Assembly (NCBI GenBank): GCA_964511085.1 | Contig: CAZEDO010000003.1 | Span: forward strand, 3,883 to 67,882 | DNA from: an uncultured Lentimicrobiaceae bacterium | Lineage (GTDB): Bacteria > Bacteroidota > Bacteroidia > Bacteroidales > DASVHX01 | Direction of reading: 5' to 3' | Length of the DNA stretch: 64,000 nucleotides | Part shown: one piece after another, positions 18,589-61,930 of the stretch | How positions within the stretch are numbered: position 1 is the first letter of the stretch | Layout of the letters: each line of letters starts with the position of its first letter | Translations under genes and position numbers: made by a program | Notes under the pieces: generated by a model | What the model was told of the DNA's origin: nothing | The model's database searches: none | The model's input: the letters and a program-made list of their open reading frames with translations, nothing else

Positions 18589-21500
18589 TTATGGTAAAGC
18601 AACAGAAACAGCTGCTGCTGCATTATTTTCCACAATAGACATATCGCTGGAATCAACCAGGCCATCTCCATTGACATCTTCAGCTAAATAACCACTTGAA
18701 GCAATAGCGGATAAATTTTCAACAATTGACATATCACCTGAGTCAACTATTCCATCCTGGTTTGCATCGCCTCCAAATATTGCATATCCACCACTTCCCA
18801 TTTGAACTAGATTGCTGCCAAATGCTTTTATTGGATTATCAAAGCTATAAGTTATATTGCTACCAGAAAATGATATTATAGAAGAAGAAACTGTAGCTAT
18901 GCTGTTGCGATGCCTGATAGCCACATAATATAAACTATTGTATATACCTGGCAAAGTGAGTGTTGCAGATCCATCAGTATTCAAGTCAATATTATAAGCA
19001 GTGTAAATAATGTTATTGTACAAGGATCCGTCATGCAGTTCTATAGTGATCTGATCAGCAATGGCACCTGCGAATTGATCGCCTGAAACACCCTGTGCTT
19101 TTCTCATGTAGCCAGGGCTATAATACAATCCTTCAAGGAAAAGGTTTAGGTTGAATGTTTTGTTTGAAGTTAAGGTTTGAGCAGCTTCGTTTGAATAAGC
19201 TGAACTCCCGGAAGCATTATAAGCTACAACACGGTAAGTATACAGAATTGAAGCAGAGAGTCCGGTATTACTGTAGTTTGTTATGTTTGCGCTTACTGTT
19301 CCTATTTCAGTAAATGCTCCGGCGTCAGCTTTGCGCTCAATCCTGAATCCTGTTTCATTTGATGAGTTGTCAGCCCACATAAGATTAATCTGGCCTGGTG
19401 GTACTGCTGTAGCGGTAAGACTGGAGGGTGCTGCCGGAGGCAGTGTATATTCATTTGCACCAATATCGGCGGCAGCGGTATAAAGAGCATTTCCCCAATA
19501 ATCTCTGCCTCCATTATTTGAAATTGTTTTACCGGTGTTTATACATGATGATCCGGACTGGAGTTTGTATCCACTTACTGTATTAAGACCAAATCCACCG
19601 CTTCCGGGACTCACCAGCTTTGGATCGGTGGTCACTTTATGAGCATCAGATGGTTCCGTTGAAGGATGAATTCCGTAAAAACAATTGTAATCAATAGACC
19701 TTGTATATCCTGTAGTCCAATCGTAGCTGGCCGTGGGACTGAGATTATAAATCAGGTTGTTGTTGAATGTATATATCCTTGATCCGGCACCACCAACATT
19801 GCGTTCAGAAATGATTAAAGGTGAAAGATTTGATGGTATATAAACAGTGTTATTGTATATACGAACGGAAGTAACAGGATAATTGATGCAAAAAATTACC
19901 CCTTGGTCATTCTGACTAATGTTATATCGGCAAACCACATTCACATCTGCCTGAACGGTACAAGTCCAGAAAAGACCGTGGGCATTATCGTGGCTGTAAC
20001 TATACTGCCAGTATGTATTTGGCGAACGCAGGTCGGCATCATATAAACTGCCGTCAGCATCAGGCGAATTATTATCGTATCCTTCATTGTACTGAAAAAC
20101 AGTTCCTGAACAGGCTGCTGAAAATATTGTATTTCCTGTGATTCCGTTTGCTGTATTATAACATACATTGTTTTCAATAACTCCTCCTTCAAACAGACGG
20201 ATTATCATCGCATTTTTGGAAATATTGGAGATCGTATTATTGCGGATTACTGCATTGGTGATCTTCATTGAGTTCCATTCTGCAGAATAAGGATCAAATC
20301 CATCATCCGTTACACACTCAGTAATTATTCCCTGATTCTCGCACGAAGAAATCACACAATTTTCGATAAGGATATCATTAAAATGAGTTTCCTGTGAAGC
20401 AACTGAAACAATTGCAAAACCAATTCCACCTGTACGCTTGTCTGTACGTTCTTGACCAACAGAGCCTTTAATGTTATGAATATACAGATTCTTCAAATAA
20501 ATATGATTGGCAGTACCAAAATTCTCTGCTTCAATCCGCACACCTCTGCGATCGCCTGCAGCAGCAGCATTATTCGTAATTTCCAGGTTATTGACTTCCC
20601 AGTATTGCTGATTATAAAGGTAAACCACTCCTGTTCCGGTCATACCATTTCCATCGATTATTGGTTTATTTCCTTCACCATACATATCGATAATAATTGG
20701 GCTTCCTGAAATTCCAGAGCCTTTTGGATATAACTTTCCGGTCCAGACTCCTCCAGCCTTAAATAAAATCCTGTTATTAGCAGTAAAAGTTGTTGCATTT
20801 ACTTTAGTAAGTGTTTTCCATGCGGTAGCAGAAGACAAACCGTTGTTTGCATCATTCCCTCCGGTAAAATCAATAAAATATGTAATTATTTCTATACTTT
20901 GAGTTGTAGCTGAAGCTTCGTTTGAATAAGCAGAGTTACCTGTTACATTATAGGCTAAAACACGGAAAGTATATAGCGTAGATGGAACAAGTCCGGTGTT
21001 GCTATAGCTTATTATGTTTGGCCCAACGATAGCTATTTGCGCAAATGTACCAGTTCCTGTCTTTCTCTCAATAATGAAACCGGCTTCATTACTGGCATGA
21101 TCGGTCCAGAAAAGTTGAATTTCACTTGAAGAGATACTATTGGCAGTAAGATTGTCGGGCGAAATTGGTAATGTTGGGGCACCCAATGTTGTAGCGGAAG
21201 ATTCGTTTGAATATGCCGAGTTCCCGAAAGTATTGAAAGCAAATACACGGTATGTATATAAAGTAGATTCATTAAGCCCCGTATTACTATAACTATTAAC
21301 ATTCGCACCTACAGATGCAATTTCGGTATAAGTACCTGATCCTGTCTTACGCTCAATTTTATAGCCGTCTTCATTGTTGGCATTATCTGTCCATGTTAAA
21401 TCTATCTGGTTTGAAGCTATTGTATTTGCTGCCAAATTAGTTGGGGCGTCAGGAACAACTGGGTTTGAAACGATTACAAGTTCAGGCCGGTTGGCCACTG

Positions 21501-22029
21501 CTTCTTTACTGCTGAAAGTGATAGTTGGCGTGGTGACTGTAGCCGAATAAACAACAATGCTTATTATTTTATCGTTTCCGGAGAACTGGCTTTGAACGTA
21601 GGTAGTTATATCCCATTCATAATATCCAGGTGATGCTAACAATGGGGTAGTAGCAATTATTGTTCCTTCTGCAGGTGCGTTGCTCCATGTTAATCCAGTT
21701 TCCGTCCATCCATCAGCTACCTGATGAATGTTCATAGAAACAGCTGTAGAGGTTGTAGCATATAATCTTATTATAGCGCTGGAAACCACGGTTACACCTG
21801 ATGTTGTTAAATCAAATTTTAGATATGCCTTACGAAAATTAACCGACGTAGCTTTTTTTACTATCAAATCCACTGCAGTTCCATAGTTTGTTGTGGCATT
21901 CGCATCATAAATGTACGAATCGGCAGTTGGGTTATAAGTTGCCGCCAAAGCAACCTTTCCTGGAATTAGCAAGGCTATTATTATGAAAAAAGAAGAGAAA
22001 AATGTTGTTTTTGATATGAATCGTTTCAT
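18589..22029 (-). CDS. Giant secreted enzyme: DNRLRE-like domain, 2x FN3, right-handed parallel beta-helix, FN3, dockerin-like C-terminal module
   Basis: 1146 aa. N-terminal signal peptide, then a DNRLRE-like region (TADSYIYDANATTNYG..KAYLKFDL) and FN3 repeats (IDLTWTDNANNEDGYKIERK). The beta-helix core is homologous to 59570..61930 over about 480 aa. The last 190 aa are FLEGLY beta-sandwich plus DANQDGIVDSGD / DVNGDGLVDSSD loops. Confidence 0.85.
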   Translation of the reverse strand: MKRFISKTTFFSSFFIIIALLIPGKVALAATYNPTADSYIYDANATTNYGTAVDLIVKKATSVNFRKAYLKFDLTTSGVTVVSSAIIRLYATTSTAVSMNIHQVADGWTETGLTWSNAPAEGTIIATTPLLASPGYYEWDITTYVQSQFSGNDKIISIVVYSATVTTPTITFSSKEAVANRPELVIVSNPVVPDAPTNLAANTIASNQIDLTWTDNANNEDGYKIERKTGSGTYTEIASVGANVNSYSNTGLNESTLYTYRVFAFNTFGNSAYSNESSATTLGAPTLPISPDNLTANSISSSEIQLFWTDHASNEAGFIIERKTGTGTFAQIAIVGPNIISYSNTGLVPSTLYTFRVLAYNVTGNSAYSNEASATTQSIEIITYFIDFTGGNDANNGLSSATAWKTLTKVNATTFTANNRILFKAGGVWTGKLYPKGSGISGSPIIIDMYGEGNKPIIDGNGMTGTGVVYLYNQQYWEVNNLEITNNAAAAGDRRGVRIEAENFGTANHIYLKNLYIHNIKGSVGQERTDKRTGGIGFAIVSVASQETHFNDILIENCVISSCENQGIITECVTDDGFDPYSAEWNSMKITNAVIRNNTISNISKNAMIIRLFEGGVIENNVCYNTANGITGNTIFSAACSGTVFQYNEGYDNNSPDADGSLYDADLRSPNTYWQYSYSHDNAHGLFWTCTVQADVNVVCRYNISQNDQGVIFCINYPVTSVRIYNNTVYIPSNLSPLIISERNVGGAGSRIYTFNNNLIYNLSPTASYDWTTGYTRSIDYNCFYGIHPSTEPSDAHKVTTDPKLVSPGSGGFGLNTVSGYKLQSGSSCINTGKTISNNGGRDYWGNALYTAAADIGANEYTLPPAAPSSLTATAVPPGQINLMWADNSSNETGFRIERKADAGAFTEIGTVSANITNYSNTGLSASILYTYRVVAYNASGSSAYSNEAAQTLTSNKTFNLNLFLEGLYYSPGYMRKAQGVSGDQFAGAIADQITIELHDGSLYNNIIYTAYNIDLNTDGSATLTLPGIYNSLYYVAIRHRNSIATVSSSIISFSGSNITYSFDNPIKAFGSNLVQMGSGGYAIFGGDANQDGIVDSGDMSIVENLSAIASSGYLAEDVNGDGLVDSSDMSIVENNAAAAVSVALP

Positions 22030-22071: not shown

Positions 22072-23151
22072 TCAAAAATTTATCTGTCTATAGATATCTG
22101 AATTTAATTGAACATTAGATTTCAGAACCAAGTTGTGTATATAATCTAAATATAATTTGTCGAGAAACGACGCCCTGATAGTTCTTTTACAATCATTAAA
22201 ACTCCTGTAGCCTAATAATCTCTTCTCTTTTACCTGAAAGATATATAATGCATCAGGATACTCTTTTACAGGGCTCCGTTCATTTATGAGCATCTTATTC
22301 GCTGCTTCTTTTACCAGTGATTTAACTGCATTGTCTTCTTCCTGCGAATAAACAGAATCGTTGTAAATGATATCTTCAACAGTTAACAAAACTGCCTGAT
22401 TTTTTTTATATTTTTCTTTAATTTCGGCAATATAGGATTCGTTCGTAAAAATGCTATCTGCAATATCAGTAAGCATTAGGGCTACATCTTTTCTTAATTT
22501 ACTATCCTCTTCAAAGTTATTTTCAGGTTTGATTTTCATACCTATCAGGCGAATTTTCATGTAATAACCCCTGCGATAAAGGCGATTCTTATCAATCTCA
22601 TAAACTTGCTTTAGTTTTTCATCTGAAATGCTGAAAACTTTTTCGTCTAACACGTTTTTCAGTTGGTTTACCATGTTAGTGAAAAGATAATTGTAATATA
22701 CATCTTCGCTGTACTGAACCGGCCCGTAAATTACTTTATTCAACTTCCTGGCTTCAAGCCTTCTATTGTTTTCCTTTTGGAGTAACCTAAGAAATTCCAT
22801 GTAGCTGATATCCGATACTATACCCCATTTTTTTGCGCTGATTTGCTGAATTTTGATCTGTTCCAACGTATCAAGGGTTTCCTTTTTCAATATATCAGAT
22901 GGTGTTTTACCGTCATAGGCTTTGCTCCAAAATTCATTATTGTATTCGGAACCATAGTTGATCCGGAAATACCGGATTACTTGCGAACGCCTTTTTTCAG
23001 CGCATTTCATAAATTCTCTTACAATTATTGGCTCACCATTAACAAAGGCTACTACAGAAGTATCTGCAAGCATTGTCTGGGCTATGCATGGGTAACCAGA
23101 AACTATGACAAACATGATCAAAATACATATTCTTCTCAAACATAAATGCAT
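22072..23151 (-). CDS. Secreted SurA-N-terminal-like / PpiD-like chaperone candidate (no PPIase motif seen)
   Basis: Signal peptide MHLCLRRICILIMFVIVSGYPCIAQ (start moved to the internal ATG at 23151). The VAFVNGEPIIVREF segment resembles SurA/PpiD N-terminal chaperone domains. It sits between two dockerin-type giant genes. Confidence 0.45.
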   Translation of the reverse strand: MHLCLRRICILIMFVIVSGYPCIAQTMLADTSVVAFVNGEPIIVREFMKCAEKRRSQVIRYFRINYGSEYNNEFWSKAYDGKTPSDILKKETLDTLEQIKIQQISAKKWGIVSDISYMEFLRLLQKENNRRLEARKLNKVIYGPVQYSEDVYYNYLFTNMVNQLKNVLDEKVFSISDEKLKQVYEIDKNRLYRRGYYMKIRLIGMKIKPENNFEEDSKLRKDVALMLTDIADSIFTNESYIAEIKEKYKKNQAVLLTVEDIIYNDSVYSQEEDNAVKSLVKEAANKMLINERSPVKEYPDALYIFQVKEKRLLGYRSFNDCKRTIRASFLDKLYLDYIHNLVLKSNVQLNSDIYRQINF

Positions 23152-23341
23152 TTCAGATTTATTAAAGCTCAATAACAACACAAACATCCTTATAAGATTC
23201 TTTGATGAATTAACAAATGTAATTAAGAATGTGCATCATAAAGTTATTGATTAGTCAACTCAGGTATCTTGAACGATCATTTACCTTACTAATTATTTGA
23301 AAACTATTTGTCAAAGCAATAGAATTCCAGGTAATACTAAT

Positions 23342-26300
23342 TTATGGAGTGGAAGATGCAACAGCAGATGCAGCATTGTTTTCAACAATCGACATGTCAC
23401 CGCCATCTATAAGGCCGTCTCCATTAGCATCTTCAGCTAAATATCCATTTGAAGCAACAGCAGAAGAGTTCTCAACAGGTGCCATATCGCCGGAGTCAAC
23501 TATTCCATCCTGGTTTATGTCTCCTCCATATATAGCATATACACTACCATCCCTAAGGAGGAGGTTGCTGCCAAAGGCTTTTTCAGGTGAATCAAATGCA
23601 AATCCGATTACTCCATTAGCAAAGGAAACAGGAAAAGCACAAGTTGTTGTAATACTGTTTCGATGCTTTACAGTAATATAATAAGAACTTCCCAGGGTAG
23701 CGGGAACTACAATTGAAGCATTTCCAACTGTGCTAAGATCCACATTATTGAAAGAATACACCTTTGTAGCATAGTTTGCAGCGTTATGCAATTCAACTGA
23801 TATCTGATCGGCAATATCGCCTGGAAATTGATCACCCATATCACCCTGTGCTTTTAACATCGTGCTATTTCCATTGTAAAGTCCCTCCAGAAATAATGCT
23901 AAATTTAGAGTCCTGTTAGCGACAGCATCATTTGAATATTCAGAATTGCCAGCAACATTATAAGCGCAAACACGATATGTATAGGATTTTGGTTTGGCAT
24001 TAACTTTACTCCATTCCTGGGCAAAAAAAGATGCCAACCATGCCGAAATCTCCGTTTCGTGCCCAAGACAGCTATGAGTAGCACCAGGAATGATATGTAG
24101 TTCGTTTGTAACACCAACAGCATCAAGTGCATTGTGCAAATCAATACTATTCTGTGGAAGAATTGTTACATCTGCATCACCATGAACCAATATAGAAGGC
24201 ACATCTGTTGATTGAAGGTAATTAGCAGTTGAATAAGGAGGTGAAGGATAAACCCATCCCCTCATTTCAGGTTCAAGTCCTCCCCAAAGAGTAGCATTAG
24301 CAACAATTCCAGTCTTGTTCCAAAGAGTTGTCAGGTACTGATTTTCTGGCGGAGATATTGCTGTTGGGTCTGGACCATCGAACTGGCATACTGTTTGAGC
24401 GGTTCTGCCACCTGCTGAACCACCAGCTATAAAGATAAGGTTTGGATCAATATGATATGTTGCTGCGTTTGCTTTTATCCAGCTAATGGCTGCGTTTGCA
24501 TCCCTTGCTGCATCCTGAAGGGCTGGAAACTCGGAAGCCTGAGTGGGCATATCGGCTGCTAAACGCAGTCTGTAGTCGATGGACATGCAAACGTATCCGC
24601 GCTTTGCAAACCTTGTACTGTAATCCACAATATAACCCTGGGTCCTGTATGAATCTGTTCTGAATCCTCCACCATGAATCCAAATAATCACCGGACGGGC
24701 TTGCGTGGCATCACCAGTTGGTTGATATATATCCAGCAGGAGCTCAGTTGGAACTCCTTTGTAATTAATTACATCGGCAAATTTTACTCCCGAAGTAACT
24801 GTTATAGCAGCAAACCGGTCAGCCGGGATAAAAGCACCAGGGTCAAGTCCTGGCATTGAATTACCAGAAGTAGTCACATCTGCTCCAGTGGTAGCTACTT
24901 GAGTAAAAAGTCCGTTGTCAGGTTTGCGCTCTATCCGAAATCCTGCTTCAGTTGAATTATTATCCGACCAGCTAAGATTGATCTGAGTTGCTGAGGATGG
25001 AATAGCTGATAAACTATATGGAGCTCCCAGTGCCACTGAGAAATTCACCCTGTAAGTATTCGTGGATATTCCATCGGGTGCAGTTACAAGAACAGTTGTT
25101 GTGCCTGGCATACTTGTAGCATTTGAAACAAGTATAGTTGAAGCAGGTTGAGTTGCTGTTGCTGTAACTATTGGCACTGTTGAAGTTCCGGCAGGTAATA
25201 TCACATTATATGAGTAGGTGGTTGGGGAGAATCCTGATATTGTAGTACTACCGACTTTCAAGTCACTAAGTGAGGCATCTGCCGTAGAATTCATGGTAAG
25301 GCTGATATCATCTATGTAAAACAAACCTTGTGAAGTTGTACCTGTATTTGCTGTTCCACGTAAACTCAACATTATACCGGAACTGTTATCATTCACAGGA
25401 ATAATTACCTGGTGCCATATTGTAGTACTCCCATCCATTGGCATTGGATCGGTGCTGATGGTTGTCCAGCTTGAACCACCGTCAGTTGATTTCTCAACAT
25501 AAAGATGCAGTTGGTGCAAAGGATCGGCATCCAGTACCCTCACATAAAATTCCAAAATCCCGGCTGTATTGCATGAAGGAGAAATTAATGTTCCTCCATC
25601 GAGAGGTGCTGTCCATTTAAATTTTGGACATGATAATCCTGGTGAAAAGAGGCCAACTCCATTTGAAGCGGAATTGCTTATATTTCCAGTAAAAGACCAA
25701 CTTGCAGGTGGAAAAGCGGCAAATCCCTCCTTGAAATGATAAGCCATTCCTGAAGATATATTAAATACAACTGAATAAGTTTTAGTAGTAACTCCGTCCT
25801 GTGCTGTTACTACAACGGTTCCTGTTCTTTGGGCCAATGTTCCTATAAGGTTTGCAGGTGGTACAAATCCCAAAGTTGCACCGGGTTGGGCTGTAGTAGC
25901 TACCAACGTCAACGAAGATACTTCATCTGGCAGTTCTGTTGTATAATTTAATACAGAAGAAGAAAAGCCGGTGACCATAACACTTTGGCTTCCTCCTGAA
26001 GGCAACCACCTGAGGTTACTCAGATTGGCATCGTTTGAAGGAGCTGCCAATGTAAACGCAACGGTATAGGTTAATTGGGTTATTCCATCCTGTGCTGTAA
26101 CAAGCAAGCTTGTGGAACCTGGCAATGAAACAGCTGGAGTAATAGCAACATTAGCCAATCCGAACGTCGGAGTAGCTGTAACTGTTGGTACAATTGTCGT
26201 ACCAAAAGGTAGTTCAACTGAATAAGTATAAATCGCGGATGCAAAACCTGCAACGGTAGCTCCGTCTATTTTAAGATCATTCAAACTGGCATCAGTACTG

Positions 26301-27460
26301 ATGGTATTGGAAAGTGTTGTAAAAGTTGAAGATTGGGTTCCTGATAAATTCCCGGCTCCATCCTTTACCGGCCCTGTTGCAATGTAGTAGGATTGGGAGT
26401 AATCTAGTTCAGAGGAAGGAATCAGGGTTATAATTGTTTTAGAATCATTGATTGAAGCACTAAATGGTACATCTGTTCCAGCAGCATCCGTGGTTTTGAA
26501 AACAACAAGCGATGCCAGATCCGCATTTGTAAGAGGAGTTCCATCAGCTTTAATTACAGGCGCATCGAAAGTTATTGTTGGCATTACGTTCCTTAGTACA
26601 TCTATTGCTCCGTTTGCAGGCACGAACGTAGCAACTGGTGCCACATTATCAAATGCAACAGCATCTGTCCATGTAGTTGCAACTCTTAATCCATCAATCA
26701 TAGCTGATGGACCATTAGCCCTTTGAGTAAGCATTACGGAACGCATCCCGGCCGCGTCAGTAGTCGTAATGTCTGCATAGGAAATTGAAGGAGTTGGTTC
26801 AGGCATGCCAGGAACCGGATTAATGAAAAGGTCAACATTATCATTTGTTGTGCCAATGACAAATGTGTACTTATAAACTAACAAATAAGTTGTATTGAGC
26901 TGATAATTGAAGGCAGTCCAGCCTGATGTTGGTGAAGTTGGAGGAGTAGTTCCTTTTGCAATCCCGAATGAAATTCCACTTGCACCATCACTTTTAATAT
27001 AGACCCTGGCCCTCACTACACTAGCTGTTCCCGATGTACTTGCATCAATTTTATTTGCCAGAAAATACTCTCCTGCAACAGTAGCGCTGGTAATTTTAAC
27101 CATGCACGCAACATAAACACTACCGGTGGTCAAAGCAGATGGAACAAATTGTTTAAAAGGATCCATCCCATCAGCTGGCCCCACCAACTGGGCCGAATTT
27201 CCAATTCCTGAACTGGCATACCCGGTATAGAATAAACCTTCACTTGCAACATTTAAAGGCACTGTTCCAGTCCCCTGAAGTGTGTAGCCTGGCGTTGGTA
27301 CTGCTGTAAGTGAGACTCCTGCCGGATAAGCGAAATTATCAACCAAGAGTTGTGCAGAGCTAACCTCTGCAGATAGCATTATTACCAGAAGAGCAATTGT
27401 TCGAATAGAAAGCAGGATTGCCCCGGCCATGTCTTTCACTTTTGTATAAGAAGGTTTCAT
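23342..27460 (-). CDS. Giant secreted multidomain protein with a nested alpha/beta-hydrolase (esterase) and a dockerin-like C-terminal module
   Basis: 1372 aa with the same N-terminal LamG-like, Ig, cadherin-like and MAM-like domain order as 15560..18385. Has HGGG (aa 929-932), GGSAG (aa 1012-1016), HGDAD and GATHS esterase motifs. The last 190 aa carry DINQDGIVDSGD / DANGDGLIDGGD loops. Confidence 0.85.
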   Translation of the reverse strand: MKPSYTKVKDMAGAILLSIRTIALLVIMLSAEVSSAQLLVDNFAYPAGVSLTAVPTPGYTLQGTGTVPLNVASEGLFYTGYASSGIGNSAQLVGPADGMDPFKQFVPSALTTGSVYVACMVKITSATVAGEYFLANKIDASTSGTASVVRARVYIKSDGASGISFGIAKGTTPPTSPTSGWTAFNYQLNTTYLLVYKYTFVIGTTNDNVDLFINPVPGMPEPTPSISYADITTTDAAGMRSVMLTQRANGPSAMIDGLRVATTWTDAVAFDNVAPVATFVPANGAIDVLRNVMPTITFDAPVIKADGTPLTNADLASLVVFKTTDAAGTDVPFSASINDSKTIITLIPSSELDYSQSYYIATGPVKDGAGNLSGTQSSTFTTLSNTISTDASLNDLKIDGATVAGFASAIYTYSVELPFGTTIVPTVTATPTFGLANVAITPAVSLPGSTSLLVTAQDGITQLTYTVAFTLAAPSNDANLSNLRWLPSGGSQSVMVTGFSSSVLNYTTELPDEVSSLTLVATTAQPGATLGFVPPANLIGTLAQRTGTVVVTAQDGVTTKTYSVVFNISSGMAYHFKEGFAAFPPASWSFTGNISNSASNGVGLFSPGLSCPKFKWTAPLDGGTLISPSCNTAGILEFYVRVLDADPLHQLHLYVEKSTDGGSSWTTISTDPMPMDGSTTIWHQVIIPVNDNSSGIMLSLRGTANTGTTSQGLFYIDDISLTMNSTADASLSDLKVGSTTISGFSPTTYSYNVILPAGTSTVPIVTATATQPASTILVSNATSMPGTTTVLVTAPDGISTNTYRVNFSVALGAPYSLSAIPSSATQINLSWSDNNSTEAGFRIERKPDNGLFTQVATTGADVTTSGNSMPGLDPGAFIPADRFAAITVTSGVKFADVINYKGVPTELLLDIYQPTGDATQARPVIIWIHGGGFRTDSYRTQGYIVDYSTRFAKRGYVCMSIDYRLRLAADMPTQASEFPALQDAARDANAAISWIKANAATYHIDPNLIFIAGGSAGGRTAQTVCQFDGPDPTAISPPENQYLTTLWNKTGIVANATLWGGLEPEMRGWVYPSPPYSTANYLQSTDVPSILVHGDADVTILPQNSIDLHNALDAVGVTNELHIIPGATHSCLGHETEISAWLASFFAQEWSKVNAKPKSYTYRVCAYNVAGNSEYSNDAVANRTLNLALFLEGLYNGNSTMLKAQGDMGDQFPGDIADQISVELHNAANYATKVYSFNNVDLSTVGNASIVVPATLGSSYYITVKHRNSITTTCAFPVSFANGVIGFAFDSPEKAFGSNLLLRDGSVYAIYGGDINQDGIVDSGDMAPVENSSAVASNGYLAEDANGDGLIDGGDMSIVENNAASAVASSTP

Positions 27461-45119: not shown

Positions 45120-45207
45120 ATTAATATTTTGAAATGCTCCGATCGTTTTAATTCTGAAACATTTGCCAGTATTATACTTTGGATCTATGCAATAATGGAA
45201 TCGCTAA

Positions 45208-46287: not shown

Positions 46288-46312
46288 TTTGTAAATTTAA
46301 TTTAATCTGATA

Positions 46313-47164: not shown

Positions 47165-47419
47165 ATAATTACATTTTAATATTTTGAAGTTCTTTTTGTA
47201 AAGAATTGCATTTCAGACGTGTTCTTTCTTTATCATGCAAATCGATGGCAATGCGAATTAAATTGAGTTAAATCAAAAATACACAATCATACTCTATAAC
47301 AAACGAATATTAAGTGAATTCCGACAACTAATATTCAATATAATAAATGGATTTGCTTCATCAGACAAAATACTCCGGCAGTAGAAATACCAATAGACAC
47401 AATAAGGCACAAACAGAAA

Positions 47420-49489: not shown

Positions 49490-51001
49490 TTAGTGTTTTA
49501 CGAATTTACTTGTTATTGTTTTGTTTTCTCCCTTCAGGGTGACAAAATAGACGCCACCAGGTAAACTGTGAATATCAAAAGTTTTAATGGATTGCCTGAT
49601 ATCTTCAGTCATTAACCGGCGCCCAGTCAAATCAGATACAGTTAGAGAAGTGAAACAACGATCAGTCGATTGGACTGTTAATGTATTGTGAGCCGGATTT
49701 GGATAAACAGAAATCCTGGTATCAGAATTAACTTCTGAAACAGAAAGTCCGCTTACCTTTTTCCCTTTGAGTGAAAGGTCATCTATCCAGATACGTGTTA
49801 ATCCTTCGGCAGTTAATGTAGGTGTAAATATAACCTGAGTACTATCGTCTTCTCCAATAAAATAAGTAAATTTTTTCCATTCGGCAGTCATTTCCGAAGA
49901 GGTAATATTGCCTAATGTAATACCTATGCCACCTAGGACTTTCTTTTGAACTAACAGGTTTTCGACTCCATCAGGCTGGTCAATAGCAAGCCAGAAAGTG
50001 AGCGTATCTGATTTAGTGTACTTTGCAGTATTAAGAAATCCGATTTTATCAGGTTGCCCTCTCATAAACTTCAAAGCAGCCAGACCGAAAAATTCTCCAT
50101 GATTTCCCCCTCCTCCAACTACCGTATTTGTTGTGTAAGTATAACCACCACGCCAACCCGGTAATGGCATTACTCCATCACCCGTATTTACAAACCCGAC
50201 TTTATAAATATAATCTGAAACGGTGAATACGATCTTGTAGTTTTTAGTAACAGTTCCGTCCTGGGAAGTAACAGCAACAGTACCTGTTCTGTCGGCTTCA
50301 TAACCTCTGAGATTTGTAGGATTAGTTATTGTAATTGTAGCACCTGGATTATTAGGTGTACCAGCCATTTCTATATGTTCCACACTATATGGAACTTCCA
50401 TTATGTAATCTAAATTTGCGGCAGTAAAACCATCAATACTGATGCCATTATATGTAAGATCGGTTAGGGTGGCATCATTTGGCTCTATTGCCATTTTGGT
50501 AACACTTATATCATCAATATAACACAGGCCGAGCGAAGCTGTTCCATTAACCGAAGCTGCATGAAACCTAAGATATATTTGAGTAGCTGCATCGTTTACT
50601 TGTATATTAACAAGCTGAAATATAGAATCATTTTCCATATTGCAAGGATCTTTTCCAATTTCTGTCCAGGCTACCTGATCGTATGATTTTTCGATCATCA
50701 GGTGAAAGTCGCTCAATGTACTTGTATCCCTGACTTTAACATAAAATTGCAATGTGGCAGCGGTATTTAATGCTTTGATCATTAAAAACGATTCGTTAGG
50801 CTTTAATTTTGCAGAATATGTGCCAGGATTCAAATCTTCATTATTATGAGTTAATGAATAAGTAACATTCGTTGCAATCCAGCCTACGGGCGGCGCATTC
50901 AAAACAAAGGTTTCCTGAAAATGATAGATCTGCGCGACACTAATTCCGGAGAAAGATAGCGAAAGCGTGATAATTGACAGAATGAGTAGATTTTTTTTCA
51001 T
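49490..51001 (-). CDS. T9SS cargo with MAM/choice-of-anchor-J-like domains and a cadherin-like beta-sandwich
   Basis: 503 aa with a signal peptide. LCYIDDISV and IWIDDLSL motifs, DATLTDLTYNGISIDGF cadherin-like domain. C-terminal CTD ISVYPNPAHNTLTV...GVYFVTLKGENKTITSKFVKH. Confidence 0.8.
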   Translation of the reverse strand: MKKNLLILSIITLSLSFSGISVAQIYHFQETFVLNAPPVGWIATNVTYSLTHNNEDLNPGTYSAKLKPNESFLMIKALNTAATLQFYVKVRDTSTLSDFHLMIEKSYDQVAWTEIGKDPCNMENDSIFQLVNIQVNDAATQIYLRFHAASVNGTASLGLCYIDDISVTKMAIEPNDATLTDLTYNGISIDGFTAANLDYIMEVPYSVEHIEMAGTPNNPGATITITNPTNLRGYEADRTGTVAVTSQDGTVTKNYKIVFTVSDYIYKVGFVNTGDGVMPLPGWRGGYTYTTNTVVGGGGNHGEFFGLAALKFMRGQPDKIGFLNTAKYTKSDTLTFWLAIDQPDGVENLLVQKKVLGGIGITLGNITSSEMTAEWKKFTYFIGEDDSTQVIFTPTLTAEGLTRIWIDDLSLKGKKVSGLSVSEVNSDTRISVYPNPAHNTLTVQSTDRCFTSLTVSDLTGRRLMTEDIRQSIKTFDIHSLPGGVYFVTLKGENKTITSKFVKH

Positions 51002-53980: not shown

Positions 53981-56900
53981 TTACGCGTTCATCCTGTATT
54001 CGCTGGGTGTTTTGCTAAACTGGCGTTTAAAAGCTGTACTGAAATGTTTTGAATTAGCGAATCCCGACAGGTATGCAATCTCAGAAATAGGAAAGTCTGA
54101 TTCCAGCAGCATCCTGGCAGCCTTTCTCAGCTTTACAATACGCACAAAATCCTGGATAGAATTACCTGTAAGTGCCTTAAGTTTCCTGTATAAAACAGAA
54201 CGACTCATGGCCATTTCCCTACTAAGCTTTGTAACATCCAGAGTATCAGAATCACTATCGTTCTCAATTAAGCTTATGATATTCACAAGGAATTGTTCAT
54301 CAAGTTTGTTACTTACTACTTCAGAAGGAATAAAATTCGGTTGGCCGGTAAATTTGTTCCTTAGCAATTTCCTGCTGGTTATCAGATTTTCGATAGTTAC
54401 CTGCAAAAGATCAGGATTATATGGCTTTGATATGTATGCATCTGCCCCGGTTTTAATACCAATAATTTGATTTTCGTCTCCACTTTTTGCAGTAAGCAAC
54501 AGAACAGGAATATGGGAAGTTAGAATATCCTCTTTAATATTTTGACAAAACTCAATTCCATCCATTCCGGGCATCATAATATCTGATATGATAATATCAG
54601 GCAAATACTGCCTGGCTATTTCAAGACCTCCTGTTCCATTAGCCGCAGTGAGAACCCTGAAGGCTGGCCTGAATTTTTCAGCTATTACCCTACAGACCTG
54701 AGGATTATCATCAACAACAAGCAAAATAGGCATTTTGTCATCAGGAGGCAAAGCGCCTGAATCTGAAACAGGCATATCAACAATTTCTCCTGAGAACCCC
54801 TGATAGTCCATTTTAAGGTTGAAATTGACTTCTTCCTTTATTTCTGCATCACCTAAATGATCTTTCCCTATTGGCAAGCTAACCAAAAAAGAAGAGCCTT
54901 TCCCAATCTCACTTTCAGCTTTTATTTCACCATGATGCAGTTCAACCAGTCTTTTGCAGTATGCCAGTCCAATGCCGGAACTATCTATTTTACGATCGAC
55001 CCCCATAGTTTTTGACACGTGATAGAACCTATCAAATATCATTATTATATCTTCCGGCGCAATTCCAATTCCTGAATCCCGGATAGCAATTTCAATATAA
55101 TTTCCACGTTCATTGGCACTAATGTTCTCCTTTATATCCTTCACCCTTGTCTGAATCATAATTGATCCCCCTTCATCAGTGTATTTGAAAGCATTGGAGA
55201 GAAGGTTAAAAATGATTTTTTCCATCTTTTCCGCATCAAACCAAATTTCCGGAATGGCTCCTTTGATGCTGAGTTCAAAATTGATATTTTTCTTATTGGC
55301 TAAATCATCGAAGCTTTCTTTGATACCCTGGAGTAATTGAACAATATTGCCTTTTGTCGCTTTCAACTTCATAAGACCACTTTCGGCTTTCCGAAATTCA
55401 AGCAATTGATTAATGAGGAATAACAATCTTTTGGCGTTCCTTTCAATATTGCTTAATGTTTCTGCTTTCTTTTCGGAACCAGCAGTTTTTAAATTATCAA
55501 GATGACCCAGTATTAATGTTAACGGAGTTTTGAACTCATGCGAAATATTAGTAAAGAAACCTAGTTTCAACTGATTCAATTCTTCTAATTGTTCTTTTTC
55601 TATCCGCTCGAGAAGAAGTTGCTGCTTTACCTGTACCCATGAGGTATTTACCCTAATGAACAAAACTAAGGAACAAATAATGATAATAGCATAAATTGTG
55701 TAAGCCCACCAGGACTTCCACCATGGTGGTAAAACTCTTATCTGAATAACTGCAGGTTCAACGCTGGCAACTCCATCGTTGTTAACTGCCTTTACCATAA
55801 AAGTGTACAATCCTGGTCGCAGGCTGGCATAATTGGCAGAGCGCACTTCGCGAAAATCAGTCCATGCTTCATCAACTCCTTTCATTAAAAAGGAATATTG
55901 ATATTTACCGTTATTGATAAACCCAAGTGCTGAAAAGTGAATTTCAAAATTAGATTGAGCAAAATCCAAAGTCAGCTTCTTAAGTAGAAATAATTGTTTC
56001 TCAAGAGGGCTGTTTGGCTCTCCGACTTTCACCAGTTTATTTGAAATGTAGAGGTCAGTAAAGATGACTTTGGGAGGATGCGAATTTATCACAAGGTTTC
56101 CTGGGTAAAAGGCATTAAATCCATTGCTGCCACCAAAATAAATCTTGCCATCCCTGGTTTTGAGTGAAGCTTTCTGGTTAAATTCATTTCCTTGAAGGCC
56201 ATCAGCAACAGTATATATTTTAATCTTCCTCTGCATTGGATCATACCACACTAATCCTTTGTTTGTAGATAGCCAGAAATTATTATTGCCATCCTGCACT
56301 ATAGCATTCACAACATTATCAGGCAATCCTTCTCTAGATGTTATTGAAGTAAACTTTCCATCAGTCTGATCAAGAATACTCAATCCGCCACCCTCAGTCC
56401 CTGCCCAAATCCTCCCGTCATTTGCAATCAGAATTGAGAGAATCCTGTTATTGGCAAGGGTTGTGGTATCTGTATTTGAATGTGTATAAACTAAAAAATC
56501 TTCCGTTTCGGGATTGAAACGGTCAAGACCATGGTTTGTTCCCAGCCATATATTCCCCTGCTTGTCATTACATAGTACCTTGATCGTATTGCTGGATAAA
56601 TGCGAGTTGGAGGAAGTGTATCTTTTGAGATGACCTGTATTTCGGTCCAGAAGGTAAATCCCTCCTAAACTGGCAATGCAGAGTTTGTTACTACTGGTTT
56701 CGGTAATTGCATATACACTGGCTTTGTCAAGTGAACCAGACACATCATCAGGGTGGCTGAATTTTCGGAAGGCATTTTTTTTTCTATCAAAAATGCTTAT
56801 CCCACCACCAAATGTACCAATCCATAGGCTACCCTCATGATCTTCGTAAATTGCCAGAACTGTATTTGAAGATAAGGAATTGCTGGCAGACCTGTTGAAA

Positions 56901-58105
56901 GTAAAGGATTTGAATTTGCCGGTAATAGGATTGTAAAGGTTAAGCCCTCCGAGTGTTCCTATCCAGATATTCCCTTCCCGATCCTGAAAAAAAGTTCTGA
57001 TATGATTGTCTGATAAGCTCTCTTTATCATTGACCTGGTGCTTGACGGGTAGGAATTTCCAGTCGAATTCGCTATAATAATTTATACCACCAACATAATT
57101 GCCCACCCAAAGCCCTTTGTACCTATCCACAAAAATTTCGTACACCGAGTTGTTGCTTATGGTATAAGGGTTATTCGGATCACTCATGCATGGAGATATG
57201 AATTTGGATACAGGATCATAAATATTGAGCCCACCACCATCGGTTGCAATCATAATCCGGCCATCAGGAATACGCTCAATATCCAGTATCTGATCATTAG
57301 AAAGTGTCGAATTAGTTGATGTAATATTTTCAACCTGTCGGGTTTTCTTATTATACCTGATAATTCCGGAAGTGGTACCCAACCATATAACACTCTGATT
57401 TTCATTAAATAAACAGAGCACTCTTGCATCAATAATACCGCTTATTGAATAAACCGGTTTGACTTTGCCTGTTACCTGGTTGTATGTAAATAGCCCACCA
57501 AGTGTACCCAACCATAATAAAGTGTCGTTTTCAAAATAAATGGTATTGATCCTTTCTATTCTAAAGCCGGAAGGCACCTTCTGCTGAAGGTTAACACTCA
57601 CTAATTTCCTGTTTTGATCATCATAGCGGTATAAGTCTTCTCCATGTGTACCTGCCCAAATCCGTCCTTTCGAATCTTCTGCAATGGCTTGAATGTTATC
57701 GCGGTCAATAGAGCCTGGGCTGCCTGTACTGATTGTATATGTATCAAAGTCATCAGTCTCGGTGTTATATCGGCTAAGGCCTCCTTCCTGTGTTCCAATC
57801 CACATTCTACCCCTTGAGTCCTTAAATATTGTATTGATGTAAGCATTTCTTAAGCCACTATTGTTATTATCATATATTTTGAAGGAATACCCATCGAACC
57901 GGTTTAAGCCACTCCGTGTTCCGATCCACATAAAACCATAATCATCTTCATTAATAGAATATACAGAGTTGTGCGATAATCCTTCATTTGTAGTTAGATG
58001 ACGAAAAAAGAGGCTCTTCTCCTGCCCCGTGGAAAAGAGTGGGCATAACACTAAGAAAAGAAGAGCCGCAACTACTGCTGGTGCTATTTTTCCAGTTATA
58101 CGCAT
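53981..58105 (-). CDS. Hybrid two-component system regulator (beta-propeller/Y_Y_Y sensor, HisKA, HATPase, REC, AraC-type HTH)
   Basis: 1374 aa. Contains repeated propeller blades (WIGT..GL.R..), a TM helix and the H-box FFTNISHEFKTPLTLI. Also has ATPase DSGIGI, REC LLVVDDN...SDIMMPGMDG and the AraC HTH SEIAYLSGFANSKHFSTAFKRQFSKTPSEYR. Confidence 0.92.
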   Translation of the reverse strand: MRITGKIAPAVVAALLFLVLCPLFSTGQEKSLFFRHLTTNEGLSHNSVYSINEDDYGFMWIGTRSGLNRFDGYSFKIYDNNNSGLRNAYINTIFKDSRGRMWIGTQEGGLSRYNTETDDFDTYTISTGSPGSIDRDNIQAIAEDSKGRIWAGTHGEDLYRYDDQNRKLVSVNLQQKVPSGFRIERINTIYFENDTLLWLGTLGGLFTYNQVTGKVKPVYSISGIIDARVLCLFNENQSVIWLGTTSGIIRYNKKTRQVENITSTNSTLSNDQILDIERIPDGRIMIATDGGGLNIYDPVSKFISPCMSDPNNPYTISNNSVYEIFVDRYKGLWVGNYVGGINYYSEFDWKFLPVKHQVNDKESLSDNHIRTFFQDREGNIWIGTLGGLNLYNPITGKFKSFTFNRSASNSLSSNTVLAIYEDHEGSLWIGTFGGGISIFDRKKNAFRKFSHPDDVSGSLDKASVYAITETSSNKLCIASLGGIYLLDRNTGHLKRYTSSNSHLSSNTIKVLCNDKQGNIWLGTNHGLDRFNPETEDFLVYTHSNTDTTTLANNRILSILIANDGRIWAGTEGGGLSILDQTDGKFTSITSREGLPDNVVNAIVQDGNNNFWLSTNKGLVWYDPMQRKIKIYTVADGLQGNEFNQKASLKTRDGKIYFGGSNGFNAFYPGNLVINSHPPKVIFTDLYISNKLVKVGEPNSPLEKQLFLLKKLTLDFAQSNFEIHFSALGFINNGKYQYSFLMKGVDEAWTDFREVRSANYASLRPGLYTFMVKAVNNDGVASVEPAVIQIRVLPPWWKSWWAYTIYAIIIICSLVLFIRVNTSWVQVKQQLLLERIEKEQLEELNQLKLGFFTNISHEFKTPLTLILGHLDNLKTAGSEKKAETLSNIERNAKRLLFLINQLLEFRKAESGLMKLKATKGNIVQLLQGIKESFDDLANKKNINFELSIKGAIPEIWFDAEKMEKIIFNLLSNAFKYTDEGGSIMIQTRVKDIKENISANERGNYIEIAIRDSGIGIAPEDIIMIFDRFYHVSKTMGVDRKIDSSGIGLAYCKRLVELHHGEIKAESEIGKGSSFLVSLPIGKDHLGDAEIKEEVNFNLKMDYQGFSGEIVDMPVSDSGALPPDDKMPILLVVDDNPQVCRVIAEKFRPAFRVLTAANGTGGLEIARQYLPDIIISDIMMPGMDGIEFCQNIKEDILTSHIPVLLLTAKSGDENQIIGIKTGADAYISKPYNPDLLQVTIENLITSRKLLRNKFTGQPNFIPSEVVSNKLDEQFLVNIISLIENDSDSDTLDVTKLSREMAMSRSVLYRKLKALTGNSIQDFVRIVKLRKAARMLLESDFPISEIAYLSGFANSKHFSTAFKRQFSKTPSEYRMNA

Positions 58106-59569: not shown

Positions 59570-61930
59570 TTATTGAACGAGTATTATAGTCTGTCGTGTT
59601 AACTTATTTTCAGAAGTTAGCCTCAGCAAATAAGCTCCGGGGATAAGCATGAGGTTTGAAAGAGGTATTGACATTTTCAGCCCCCCCCCCGACATGTGAA
59701 ATTCTTTTTCAAATACAAGTCTGGTGTCTATCGAATTCAATGTAACACGTACATTCGTGTTTGGAAAATCATCAGCTTCAATTATAACAAACTCTGTAGC
59801 TGGAATTGGATATACCTTTATAGTATTGGTCAATTTCAATTCCGAAATTCCAATTGGACCTGTATATTCAAAAGCCCCTCTGTCAATGATTGAATAAGTC
59901 GGGACTACATTCCCCTCTATATCCTTAACAAGGCTTGCGTTAACTACCGTGCCAGAATTTATGGCAGGCGATGAACTTTTTAACCTAAACCCAACAAGAG
60001 AATCAATCCCATGCCCAGGTTGATCCGGCGATTCAAATTGAGGATCGAGGTCTATTCTATGAGCATCGGCTGGCACATTTGCTATACCCGAACCAAAGAA
60101 AATATTGTAATCGAACTCATTGCCGGTACTTGCGCCCAGATCAACTGATGCACCTGCTCCCATTACCTGAAAAATATTGTTATAGTACTTAGTATTAGAT
60201 GAATAACCTTCCCAGCTTTTATGCCGGATCAGGTCAATATTTGTCAAAGAAGCTTTGCTATAAATAGTGTTATTATAGATACTGCTATTGGTGGCAGAAC
60301 CCGAAGTACGGATGACATGATCAGCATTATTCGCCATAACATTGTAGCGAATAACAGTACCGTCATTAAAATTACTGCCAGGGCCTCCTGTTAAAAGAAT
60401 TGCCCCATATCCGTTGTCGTGGCTGTAATTATACTGAATAGTTGTATACTTCGAATTATAATCACTGTCGAATCCTCCGGCATCTTCGTCACCACTGTTA
60501 TACTTTGTAAAACAGGCTTCATTATATTGCCATAGCGCATAATTGGTGTTGAAACTGAAAGAGGCATTCCCCGAACCTTTTATCGAACAATTGTTAAAAA
60601 GATTGTTTTCCATTATTGGCTTGAAGGCAACCCGCACAATAAGCGCATTGGCTCCGGTGCGCTCAAATGTATTATTCCTGAAAATCATATTTGTGCTCGG
60701 TGTCCAGTTCCCATCGGTTGAGAGGGTTCGGTCGCTCCATGATGAACGGTTGGAAATTCCGGTACGGTCCAGATCGTGGATATAACAGTCTTCAACAAGT
60801 AGTGTATCAAAATATGTAGGTGTTGCGGAGCCGGTTACATCAAAAAATATCCCACCATTATTTTTAGATGTTTCACCATCCATACTTCCATTTACATCCG
60901 AAATTTCCAGACGTCGAAAAATTAGATGCCGCACAACTCCCATGTCGTCTGCCTGCACATACAAGGCTCTTCTAAAATCAACAGTATCGCCATGATTCGT
61001 AATAGAAAGATCCTGAACTTCTATATATTTTTGGTTGGTCAATTGCATAGTGTTTTGGACTAAACCCTGTCCTTCTATTTTAGGATTAGCCCCTTCGCCG
61101 TATTTACCAACACAGATTGGTTTGCCAGCTACACCACTGCCTTTGAAACTGAGTTGTCCCTGCCAGACAACTCCTGCTTTTAATAGGATTGAATCCCCTG
61201 GTTCAAAAGTAGTTGCACTGATATTTGCAAGGCTTTTCCAAGCCTGGGAAGGGTTTGCAGCCGAATTATCGTCATTACCGGCATTAAAATCGACATAATA
61301 AGCACCGGTACGGTGAAAAGGTACCGGCCCTTCAACTAATTCCAATAAAGGTTGGTTCCCCGACGAATTCTCTTTCGAATGCCACCGTGTGTCTTTTGTA
61401 GAAACTGCACCTCCCACATCTTTAAGTATGAAAGCCACGTTTACTCGTCCTTCACTTACTGCCTGATTTAAATAACTTGTCACATCCCACGCATAGTAAC
61501 CTTCTCCGGCCACAAGCACTATATCGCCTATAAATACACCCGGAGGCCGGGTATTGCCTGTAAGCGATTCCTCCTGCCATGCAGTATCGGTAGAATATAT
61601 CTGCGTTCTTTTTGTCTCAAGCACTTTCCCGTATAATTTTACCTGGGCCGAAACAAAAGTCGTGTCGAATGAACCAATATGGAATTTGATATATGTTTCG
61701 CGTGTAAACTCCTCAGAAGATACGCTCTTCCTTGTTTTGAGACTGTCAGGATCTATTATCCCATAAGGGTCGTTTGCCTTTAATCCGCCGGCATAAATGT
61801 AGCAATCGTCATGAGCTGGAAATACAAATTGAGCTGCTGCCTGCTGGCCGAATCCAAAGATTAACAAAAGCAGATAGATACATGAACCTGCCCTGGTAAA
61901 AGAAGTAAAGGAATTTTCGTTTTTATGCAT
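59570..61930 (-). CDS. T9SS cargo enzyme: DNRLRE-like domain plus right-handed parallel beta-helix (polysaccharide lyase/hydrolase-like)
   Basis: Start moved to MHKNENS (ATG at 61930) to avoid overlap with susD. The core is homologous to 18589..22029 (AWKSLANISATTFEPGDSILLKAGVVWQGQL versus AWKTLTKVNATTFTANNRILFKAGGVWTGKL). CTD is IKVYPIPATEFVI...GAYLLRLTSENKLTRQTIILVQ. Confidence 0.8.
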   Translation of the reverse strand: MHKNENSFTSFTRAGSCIYLLLLIFGFGQQAAAQFVFPAHDDCYIYAGGLKANDPYGIIDPDSLKTRKSVSSEEFTRETYIKFHIGSFDTTFVSAQVKLYGKVLETKRTQIYSTDTAWQEESLTGNTRPPGVFIGDIVLVAGEGYYAWDVTSYLNQAVSEGRVNVAFILKDVGGAVSTKDTRWHSKENSSGNQPLLELVEGPVPFHRTGAYYVDFNAGNDDNSAANPSQAWKSLANISATTFEPGDSILLKAGVVWQGQLSFKGSGVAGKPICVGKYGEGANPKIEGQGLVQNTMQLTNQKYIEVQDLSITNHGDTVDFRRALYVQADDMGVVRHLIFRRLEISDVNGSMDGETSKNNGGIFFDVTGSATPTYFDTLLVEDCYIHDLDRTGISNRSSWSDRTLSTDGNWTPSTNMIFRNNTFERTGANALIVRVAFKPIMENNLFNNCSIKGSGNASFSFNTNYALWQYNEACFTKYNSGDEDAGGFDSDYNSKYTTIQYNYSHDNGYGAILLTGGPGSNFNDGTVIRYNVMANNADHVIRTSGSATNSSIYNNTIYSKASLTNIDLIRHKSWEGYSSNTKYYNNIFQVMGAGASVDLGASTGNEFDYNIFFGSGIANVPADAHRIDLDPQFESPDQPGHGIDSLVGFRLKSSSPAINSGTVVNASLVKDIEGNVVPTYSIIDRGAFEYTGPIGISELKLTNTIKVYPIPATEFVIIEADDFPNTNVRVTLNSIDTRLVFEKEFHMSGGGLKMSIPLSNLMLIPGAYLLRLTSENKLTRQTIILVQ
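59681..59690 (-). repeat. G10 homopolymer (coding strand) inside the T9SS CTD coding region
   Basis: C10 on the plus strand. It encodes S-GGG in ...EFHMSGGGLKMSI, 36 codons before the stop. Confidence 0.85.

Follow-up and report, generated by a model that had tools for sequence, protein, structure and literature searches.

Why should homologous secreted proteins encoded at a single locus end in two different C-terminal devices? This question is raised by a stretch of 64,000 nucleotides (hereafter the window) from an uncultured Lentimicrobiaceae bacterium of the Bacteroidales (assembly GCA_964511085.1, contig CAZEDO010000003.1, positions 3,883 to 67,882). The genes considered here are labelled A to F and I to N, and every one of them is an intact open reading frame (ORF) on the minus strand. 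Several of the secreted products end in the C-terminal domain (CTD) recognised by the secretion system of type IX (T9SS), an outer-membrane export signal that is cleaved off, the cargo then being released or anchored. Others end in an unrelated module that, judged from its modelled fold, is a dyad of an Ig-like X module and a dockerin, and that we call XDoc. Our answer, which we hold to be probable, is that this is one locus with two C-terminal devices, XDoc having been swapped in for the CTD on proteins that dock on cohesin scaffolds, so that a cellulosome-like display is obtained on the basis of T9SS.

A Sec-type signal peptide opens each of eight proteins (A, B, D, E, F, I, J and M); for M, the start codon is most likely that of Met23, i.e. 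coordinate 61930. A type A T9SS CTD was found in five of them: J (51408..53570, 720 amino acids [aa]; CTD 51411-51623), I (49490..51001, 503 aa; CTD 49493-49708), M (59570..61996; CTD 59573-59815), E (27966..31481, 1171 aa; CTD ~27969-28178) and F, a paralogue of E (32054..36142, 1362 aa; CTD ~32057-32260). The TIGR04183 model, with a cut-off of 23 bits, scored 34.8 bits for J, 57.3 for I and 25.5 for F, and was sub-threshold for E (20.9) and M (19.0). The Por_Secre_tail model of Pfam (PF18962, cut-off 27) was likewise sub-threshold for M, at 25.8 bits. E aligns with F, and M with the CTD-bearing protein P0198 of another assembly, each to the last residue. No CTD of type A, B or C was matched at E<=0.1 in A (15560..18385, 941 aa), B (18589..22029) or D (23342..27460) with the Pfam and NCBIfam models. 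These three proteins have no lipobox and present the Sec signal peptide only.

What A, B and D have in common is a C-terminal unit of ~190 aa that is 45–57% identical among them (45–47% between the A module and those of B and D, 56% between D and B). It occupies the extreme C-terminus of A (15563..16144, aa 748-941), residues 955-1146 of B (18592..19167) and residues 1179-1372 of D (23345..23926). The last 65 residues form a dockerin composed of two repeats, each a DxNxDGxxDxxD calcium loop followed by a helix. In B the loops read GDANQDGIVDSGDMSIVEN and EDVNGDGLVDSSDMSIVEN, and A and D follow the same pattern. In an alignment of 41 sequences the calcium-ligand columns are invariant or nearly so. 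Against the Dockerin_1 gathering threshold of 22.9 bits (PF00404), B scores 28.5, A 23.4 and D, just below, 22.8. This model reaches E<=0.001 for only 19 of 49 members of the family. The preceding ~130 residues, the X part, are covered by no Pfam or NCBIfam model. An AlphaFold model of the 197-aa unit of B, computed with 41 homologues, is of high confidence (pLDDT 96.7, pTM 0.91) and shows a single body, with a beta-sandwich packed on a two-helix dockerin whose helices span residues 148-159 and 178-189. When this model was compared to the PDB with Foldseek, the ten best matches were all type II X-dockerin dyads, including 4wi0_B, 5k39_B and 2b59_B (CipA and ScaA chains), with E values of ~2e-6 and target-normalised TM scores of 0.62–0.65. 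The module had originally been described as dockerin-like. A dockerin is indeed present; with its 55 aa it is not a unit by itself, being part of the larger dyad of X-like beta-sandwich and dockerin. A cryptic T9SS CTD hidden in A, B or D was also considered, and it can be ruled out: beside the lack of any Pfam or NCBIfam match, comparison of the X module with 12 CTDs using hhalign gave a probability of 3%, and no CTD appears among the Foldseek matches.

Are these different ends carried by homologous proteins? The original prediction proposed two such sets of paralogs. In the first, B and M were said to be homologous over about 480 aa, and pairwise alignment agrees well with this: residues 384-864 of B and 233-714 of M are 35% identical over 488 aa (blastp, E 4e-78). 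B consists of a CBM96 (DNRLRE) domain (21469..21942, aa 30-187), two FN3 domains (20905-21450), a GH136-like beta-helix core (19429..20880, aa 384-867), a third FN3 domain (19180-19422) and XDoc, the FN3 and CBM96 assignments being from Pfam. M has a CBM96 domain (61337-61825) and a GH136-like core (59855-61300) in front of its CTD. The N-terminal CBM96/DNRLRE regions are 29% identical over 198 aa and score 131.7 bits for B and 84.1 bits for M with PF24517 (cut-off 26), and 101 and 67 bits, respectively, with NF033679. The contrast drawn between the two proteins thus stands as it was described, FN3 spacers and a dockerin end (three FN3 and Dockerin_1) for B, and for M a CTD, supported by the alignment with P0198, within a locus where SusD and SusC genes are the neighbours.

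Much closer relatives of B than this 35%-identical paralogue were found. A profile search with the cores of B and M returned 2,264 homologues, and many Bacteroidales proteins of ~600–630 aa, made of a signal peptide, the core and a T9SS CTD, are 78–86% identical to the B core. With P0198, hereafter B', residues 367-867 of B align at 78% identity with zero gaps. The match stops exactly after 'EY(T/P)LPPA'; beyond this point P0198 continues into a CTD, and B into FN3 and XDoc. In a neighbour-joining tree of 122 core sequences, of which 78 end in a CTD and one in XDoc, B lies deep within a clade that is nearly all CTD. Since B is nested among CTD-ended cores, the CTD is the ancestral end and FN3 plus XDoc the derived one; the domain shuffling that had been suspected is therefore supported by the tree, the modules having been exchanged. 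The junction between FN3 and XDoc is common to both B and D, at 57% identity over 217 aa, which suggests that the moved cassette comprised FN3 together with XDoc. No XDoc was present among the 120 best core homologues, but this says little about how frequent XDoc is on such cores, because the word-indexed search favours short proteins and under-reports long ones (B itself was missing from the matches to its own core).

The genomic context of B' extends the comparison from one protein to a locus. The contig that carries it (L122, assembly GCA_026391845.1) is syntenic with the window. It is headed by a sensor gene whose product is 63% identical to K, the hybrid two-component sensor regulator of the window (53981..58105, with NCBIfam histidine kinase and response-regulator matches). 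Then follow D', which is 69% identical to residues 252-1177 of D (926 aa) and ends in a CTD; a further CTD protein; B', with its CTD; C', 45% identical to C; a second B-like gene; J' and I', which are 56% and 53% identical to J and I and both have a CTD; a GH2 enzyme 72% identical to that of the window; and finally an esterase and a short-chain dehydrogenase. Neither XDoc nor cohesin was found on this contig. Because L122 is syntenic with the window and every one of its secreted components ends in a CTD, the XDoc and the CTD proteins of the window descend from one sensor-linked locus. The claim that both kinds of protein belong to one functional system gains from this, counterparts of J, I, C and GH2 being found together with those of B and D at a single sensor-linked locus. 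The swap between near-orthologues supports both the single system and the exchange of modules far better than the 35%-identical paralogues do. Two further features of L122 were observed. Its D-C-B block is located between the sensor gene and J, unlike in the window. In addition, the first 268 aa of D' (L122:3550-7908) are of the N-domain type of E and F (41% identical to residues 35-307 of E) and not of the J type, and the segment before its CTD is 53% identical to residues 300-418 of F. As D' differs from D at both ends, N-terminal modules have been shuffled too.

Could these differences result from ordinary paralogue divergence and assembly noise, the XDoc genes being chimeras or decaying copies? 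Sequences of metagenome-assembled genomes (MAGs) can hold frameshifts, and one such case was met here: P0195, a copy of M from an NCBI MAG, departs from the M of the window in its last ~40 residues (window 59570-59700) and lacks the CTD end, probably because one of the assemblies contains a frameshift. A, B and D, on the contrary, are intact ORFs with signal peptides, and identical copies of B and D exist in independent public assemblies of uncultured Bacteroidales. The strong conservation of XDoc, with its invariant calcium-ligand positions and a model at a pLDDT of 96.7, and the thousands of family members speak against noise as well, and we regard this explanation as effectively refuted.

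The second set of paralogs joins A, D and J through an N-domain of ~240 aa (A 17546..18262, aa 42-280; D 26645..27352, aa 37-272; J 52785-53495). The N-domain of J is 44% identical to those of A (E 8e-41) and D (E 6e-46) by blastp, and its cadherin-like domain (52563-52784) is 41% identical to residues 723-810 of D. Thus, the N-domain and cadherin-like domain of this CTD-ended protein do recur in XDoc-ended proteins. The N-domain was originally called LamG-like, a label for which no confirmation was obtained: it has no Pfam match at E<=10 and no sequence match in the PDB with a ten-sequence profile; its AlphaFold model, based on three sequences, is of low confidence (pLDDT 44). Between the N-domain and XDoc, A contains a Big_5 domain, two cadherin-like domains and one MAM-like domain. 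The central part of D (23930..26644, aa 273-1177) comprises Big_5, cadherin-like and MAM-like domains, then FN3 split by an alpha/beta esterase (BD-FAE, Pfam). J continues with four Flg_new_2 repeats (51651-52538) before its CTD. The pattern turned out to be stronger than had been claimed. I, E and F provide further cases. I, which carries MAM-like and cadherin-like domains followed by a CTD, is 34–35% identical to residues 581-762 of A and 568-810 of D over these domains. Residues 420-810 of E are 42–44% identical to the XDoc-ended proteins P0063, P0110 and P0165, and residues 377-936 of F are 42–48% identical to P0056, P0063 and P0165, all from other genomes. As a detail of D, the FN3 domain in aa 813-1181 is apparently split by the inserted esterase (aa 900-1150): its N-terminal half is at 813-875 and its last strand, YTYRVCAYNVAGNSEYSN, at 1160-1181, just before XDoc.

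XDoc is by no means restricted to this window. Scored against 1.84 billion protein cluster representatives (clusters at 50% identity), its profile gave 16,329 matches at E<=0.001; of these, 8,732 reach E<=1e-10, and at least 3,631 reach E<=1e-30. Where the source names an organism, this is Lentimicrobium or Bacteroidales. The architecture was surveyed for 148 representatives out of the best 150 matches. The carriers are 260 to 4,535 aa long and contain FN3, BACON, PKD, GEVED, Ig_7, subtilase (Peptidase_S8), Kelch and beta-helix domains, as is typical of Bacteroidota surface proteins. In 141 of the 148, XDoc ends within three residues of the C-terminus, and the last residue is nearly always Pro. 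It is by locus, and not by cargo, that the modules cluster, a pattern to be expected from co-evolution of each module with a cohesin partner of its own genome. Some carriers depart from the common plan: P0045 (405 aa) consists just of a signal peptide and two tandem XDoc units, internal XDoc modules are found in P0111, P0159 and P0174, and in P0100 (1313 aa) divergent XDoc-like units, five or six in tandem, precede a tail with a weak likeness to a T9SS CTD. The sequence of P0100 hints that XDoc-like units may pass T9SS when a CTD is present.

Cohesins, the likely partners of an X-dockerin dyad, were found in relatives. On L083, a 225-kb contig with an XDoc protein, two adjacent paralogues read signal peptide, cohesin, PKD_6 and T9SS CTD in one case, and signal peptide, cohesin, PKD_6 and XDoc in the other, with Pfam Cohesin scores of 29.5 and 35.7 bits (cut-off 24.1). 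A homology search with a single cohesin domain gave two matches only, this search depending on a word index; scanning metagenomes with an alignment of cohesins turned up 37 loci. In two of these (L086 and L088) a conserved cluster is formed by a protein of ~860 aa with one cohesin and XDoc, a protein of ~800 aa with four tandem cohesins and XDoc, and a protein of ~670–690 aa with one cohesin, PKD_6, Ig and Por_Secre_tail. Variants of this cluster are present in L085, L091, L093, L095 and L119. The metagenome loci contain 86 cohesin-bearing ORFs: 35 with a CTD at the end, 13 with XDoc, and 38 that have another end or are cut by contig ends. Conversely, 10 of the 148 XDoc representatives carry one to four cohesins. 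A cohesin scaffold terminated by XDoc beside a cohesin-bearing anchoring protein was seen in L083, L085, L086, L088 and L091; within the window itself, XDoc sits on enzymes and adhesin-like proteins and not on scaffolds. There is also a connection through E and F. The ~450–490 aa just before their CTD (E aa 683-1171, F aa 919-1361) are covered by no family model. This region recurs at 25–33% identity in CTD proteins beside cohesin-anchor genes (L086, L088) and, at the same identity, as the tail of two-cohesin proteins (L098-L100). Such similarity may loosely tie the F-E-D-C-B-A block to the cohesin system. As the cohesin proteins of the relatives have a CTD at their end in some cases and XDoc in others, the relation between both devices is more likely hierarchical than one of interchangeability. 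The proposal of interchangeable C-terminal modules therefore has to be qualified: they have been exchanged on homologous cores, but they are not equivalent, one being an export signal and the other most likely a docking module that is retained.

These data also bear on a different explanation, in which XDoc would be a new C-terminal export or sorting signal, read by T9SS or by another outer-membrane translocon, with an incidental likeness to dockerins. Such a role would account for the way XDoc stands in for the CTD on near-orthologous cargo that shows no other export signal. It would also fit the position of the module, at most three residues from the C-terminus in the 141 representatives mentioned above and with its almost invariant final Pro, and its presence on domains typical of T9SS cargo (PKD, GEVED, BACON, Ig_7 and Peptidase_S8). 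It is difficult to reconcile, however, with the lack of similarity to CTD profiles (the 3% probability cited above) and of any match to the models of CTD types A, B and C, and with best structural matches that are X-dockerin dyads. Fusion of XDoc to cohesins, next to genes for cohesin plus CTD proteins, is the signature of a cohesin-dockerin network, and in P0100 a CTD-like tail behind tandem XDoc-like units would be redundant if these units were themselves export signals. Taken together, we find an export signal of this kind quite improbable.

Alternatively, A, B and D could be periplasmic proteins, or be freed by lysis or vesicles, and the module could stabilise the protein with calcium or bind glycans, without any cohesin partner in this organism. 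The swap would then represent a move from the surface to the periplasm. The Sec signal as the only targeting signal and the window devoid of cohesins are compatible with this; moreover, many polysaccharide utilisation enzymes of Bacteroidota are periplasmic, and non-cellulosomal dockerin-like modules that have no obvious partner are widespread. The cargo of XDoc nevertheless looks extracellular, with CBM96 and adhesin-like arrays of Big_5, cadherin-like and MAM-like domains in proteins of up to 4,535 aa, and the orthologues are of T9SS-exported types. Repeated fusion of XDoc to cohesins, and modules that group by locus rather than by cargo as with co-evolving partners of the same genome, point in the same direction. 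A periplasmic fate thus appears unlikely.

The reading that we favour can then be set out as follows. The window would contain parts of one sensor-regulated locus for the use of an acidic polysaccharide, with secreted parts that bear two different C-terminal devices. J, I, M, E and F would be exported across the outer membrane by T9SS, then released or anchored. On A, on B with its GH136-like enzyme core and on D with its esterase, an FN3-linked XDoc would have replaced the ancestral CTD through cassette exchange. These proteins would be exported by Sec, fold, and dock on the cohesins of scaffolds in a calcium-dependent manner, as do clostridial type II X-dockerins. In relatives, the scaffolds that end in a T9SS CTD would serve as anchoring proteins, and those that end in XDoc and carry one to four cohesins as adaptors. 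The XDoc cargo would in this manner be displayed indirectly on the cell surface, as a cellulosome-like assembly built on T9SS. The comparisons show that the cores are homologous, what the two modules are, that the ends were swapped between near-orthologues, how XDoc folds, and that XDoc, cohesins and CTDs occur together in relatives. The binding of cohesins, their presence in the genome studied here, and the surface location and export route of the XDoc proteins are parts of the scheme that we infer.

Several observations weigh against this scheme. The 64-kb window encodes no cohesin: a phmmer search with two cohesins was empty, and the best E value of a clade-specific hidden Markov model built on 100 cohesin domains, run on all six frames, was 0.26. 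The cohesin loci are on unlabelled metagenome contigs, linked to the lineage through XDoc identities of 40–55% and the presence of T9SS CTDs. In structural alignments the X module is only 12–14% identical to clostridial X modules, and its likeness to the clostridial dyads may be very old or due to convergence. XDoc is of one type on enzymes and on scaffolds, whereas classical cellulosomes keep type I and type II specificities apart. Last, the XDoc proteins, with a Sec signal only and no CTD or lipobox, have no known route across the outer membrane to cohesins at the surface. They could dock in the periplasm and be co-exported with CTD-bearing cohesin proteins, be recognised by a translocon directly through XDoc, leave by a type II secretion system, or not be exported. 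Either XDoc cargo that has lost its own tag and hitch-hikes through the large T9SS translocon while docked on cohesin-bearing T9SS substrates, or XDoc as a new export signal, would constitute an undescribed mode of protein export across the outer membrane, which we consider rather unlikely.

The remainder of the window informs on the function of the locus. A SusC-type C-terminus ending in Phe (63631-64000, the 3' end of a SusC-like gene), SusD domains encoded by N (61996-63630), the sensor K, the GH136-like M and a GH2 enzyme qualify it as a polysaccharide utilisation locus of the SusC/SusD type. Between its two halves, at 36907-49261 (minus strand), is a block for uronate and sugar-acid catabolism that comprises a hexuronate-type MFS transporter, UxaC, a GDSL esterase, 6-phosphogluconate dehydrogenase, 2-hydroxyacid dehydrogenase, a LarA-like protein, a PfkB kinase, a short-chain dehydrogenase and the GH2 enzyme. 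This block makes an acidic polysaccharide the likely substrate. For UxaC, the nearest species-level relatives are lake Bacteroidales MAGs, at 81% identity.

The cores of B and M match the solved GH136 chain 7v6m_A at E 8e-39, improved to 4e-59 with the B plus M profile, and LnbX (5gqc_A) at E 9e-24; over the chains 5gqc_A, 7v6i_A and 6kqs_A, E values range from 1e-18 to 1e-33. Acidic residues aligned to the GDG...DAD segment are conserved. The NCBIfam LnbX model gives E 1.5e-23, far under its equivalog cut-off. Immediately upstream of B, gene C (22072..23187, 371 aa) encodes a candidate LnbY-like chaperone (NF047894, E 7e-16, 58.8 bits, for an equivalog cut-off of 400) that has no Pfam match; the pairing of C with B is kept in L122. 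M has no adjacent LnbY-like gene, and the product of the adjoining gene L (58133-59545, 470 aa) matches no family. Because all scores are far below the equivalog cut-offs of NCBIfam, the substrate of B and M is probably not that of lacto-N-biosidase. The nearby UxaC, hexuronate-type MFS transporter, GH2 and esterases suggest instead a different, acidic glycan containing uronic acid, as far as gene content may indicate.

Two other observations were made in the window. Directly downstream of E and of F, respectively, are two paralogous genes for proteins of 77 and 78 aa (27717-27950 and 31710-31946, minus strand) that combine a signal peptide with a Gly/Pro-rich stretch, the motif 'GGGAPI.GL', one transmembrane helix and a tail that is basic. 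These proteins score 23.3 and 25.8 bits with the PID-CTERM sorting domain NF046080, just below its cut-off of 26, and resemble sorting signals that are nearly free of cargo. Not related to the main subject, a 462-aa protein without a Pfam match (7869-9257, minus strand) is recognised by the model for MurL, the UDP-MurNAc-L-Ala-L-Glu epimerase (NF041275, E 9e-72); its gene adjoins a Mur ligase gene.

Among known systems, the closest in structure and architecture is that of the clostridial type II cohesins and X-dockerins, i.e. the XDoc of CipA with SdbA, OlpB and ScaC in C. thermocellum, and ScaA-ScaB in Acetivibrio cellulolyticus. Both have, at the extreme C-terminus, an Ig-like X module that packs against a dockerin with two helices and two calcium loops, and the XDoc of the relatives likewise ends multi-cohesin scaffolds encoded beside a single-cohesin anchoring gene. 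The host, however, is here a Gram-negative member of the Bacteroidales with an outer membrane to cross, and in place of SLH repeats or a sortase motif the anchors have a T9SS CTD at their end. Moreover, the X module is of greater length (~130 aa), and one type of XDoc is shared by enzymes, adhesin-like proteins and scaffolds. The CTD-ended proteins J, I, F, E, M, B' and D' have the same type A CTD as the T9SS cargo of Porphyromonas gingivalis (gingipains) and Flavobacterium johnsoniae, and the locus also encodes multi-domain surface enzymes and adhesins; A, B and D differ from such cargo in that they have no CTD, and XDoc is unrelated to it by profile or fold. In comparison with LnbX and its chaperone LnbY of Bifidobacterium longum, and with the GH136 enzymes of Clostridiales, the cores of B and M match the solved structures and C precedes B; unlike LnbX, B and M have an N-terminal CBM96, and M is without an LnbY-like neighbour.

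Cohesin-dockerin assemblies are viewed as an invention of Gram-positive, clostridial bacteria. A precedent in another phylum is found in MAGs of Ca. Stygibacter (Cloacimonadota), for which a tandem-cohesin scaffold with a T9SS-type CTD and enzymes with dockerin ends were predicted (Williams et al. 2021, PMC8542988). The common points, on the basis of passages of that article, are CTD-anchored cohesin proteins, signal-peptide enzymes that end in dockerins, membership of the FCB group, and evidence from MAGs only. These passages contain no X-dockerin dyad, no cohesin plus XDoc adaptors and no exchange of a CTD for a dockerin. Closer in taxonomy is Ca. Paraporphyromonas polyenzymogenes, with multi-modular cellulases linked to T9SS, in a study according to which cohesins and dockerins are absent from Bacteroidetes genomes (Naas et al. 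2018, PMC5831590). Multi-module Bacteroidales enzymes delivered through a T9SS CTD are a shared feature; in contrast to that statement, dockerin-ended enzymes are present here, and cohesin scaffolds in relatives. A literature search gave no description of a Bacteroidales system of cohesin, XDoc and T9SS, of the XDoc family, or of a CTD-to-XDoc exchange.

Three elements are new here: a large family of C-terminal X-dockerin dyads in Bacteroidales-type sequences that had not been annotated as a unit, the replacement of a T9SS tag by this dyad on near-orthologous enzymes, and multi-cohesin scaffolds accompanied by anchoring proteins that end in T9SS tags. They raise the question of how a folded protein without such a tag crosses the outer membrane into a surface complex. 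XDoc gives annotators of environmental Bacteroidota a new module from which the localisation of proteins can be predicted, and protein engineers a Gram-negative cohesin-dockerin toolkit. For the biology of these bacteria, the finding suggests that a Gram-negative lineage has a display system akin to the cellulosome, of a kind that has been little described.

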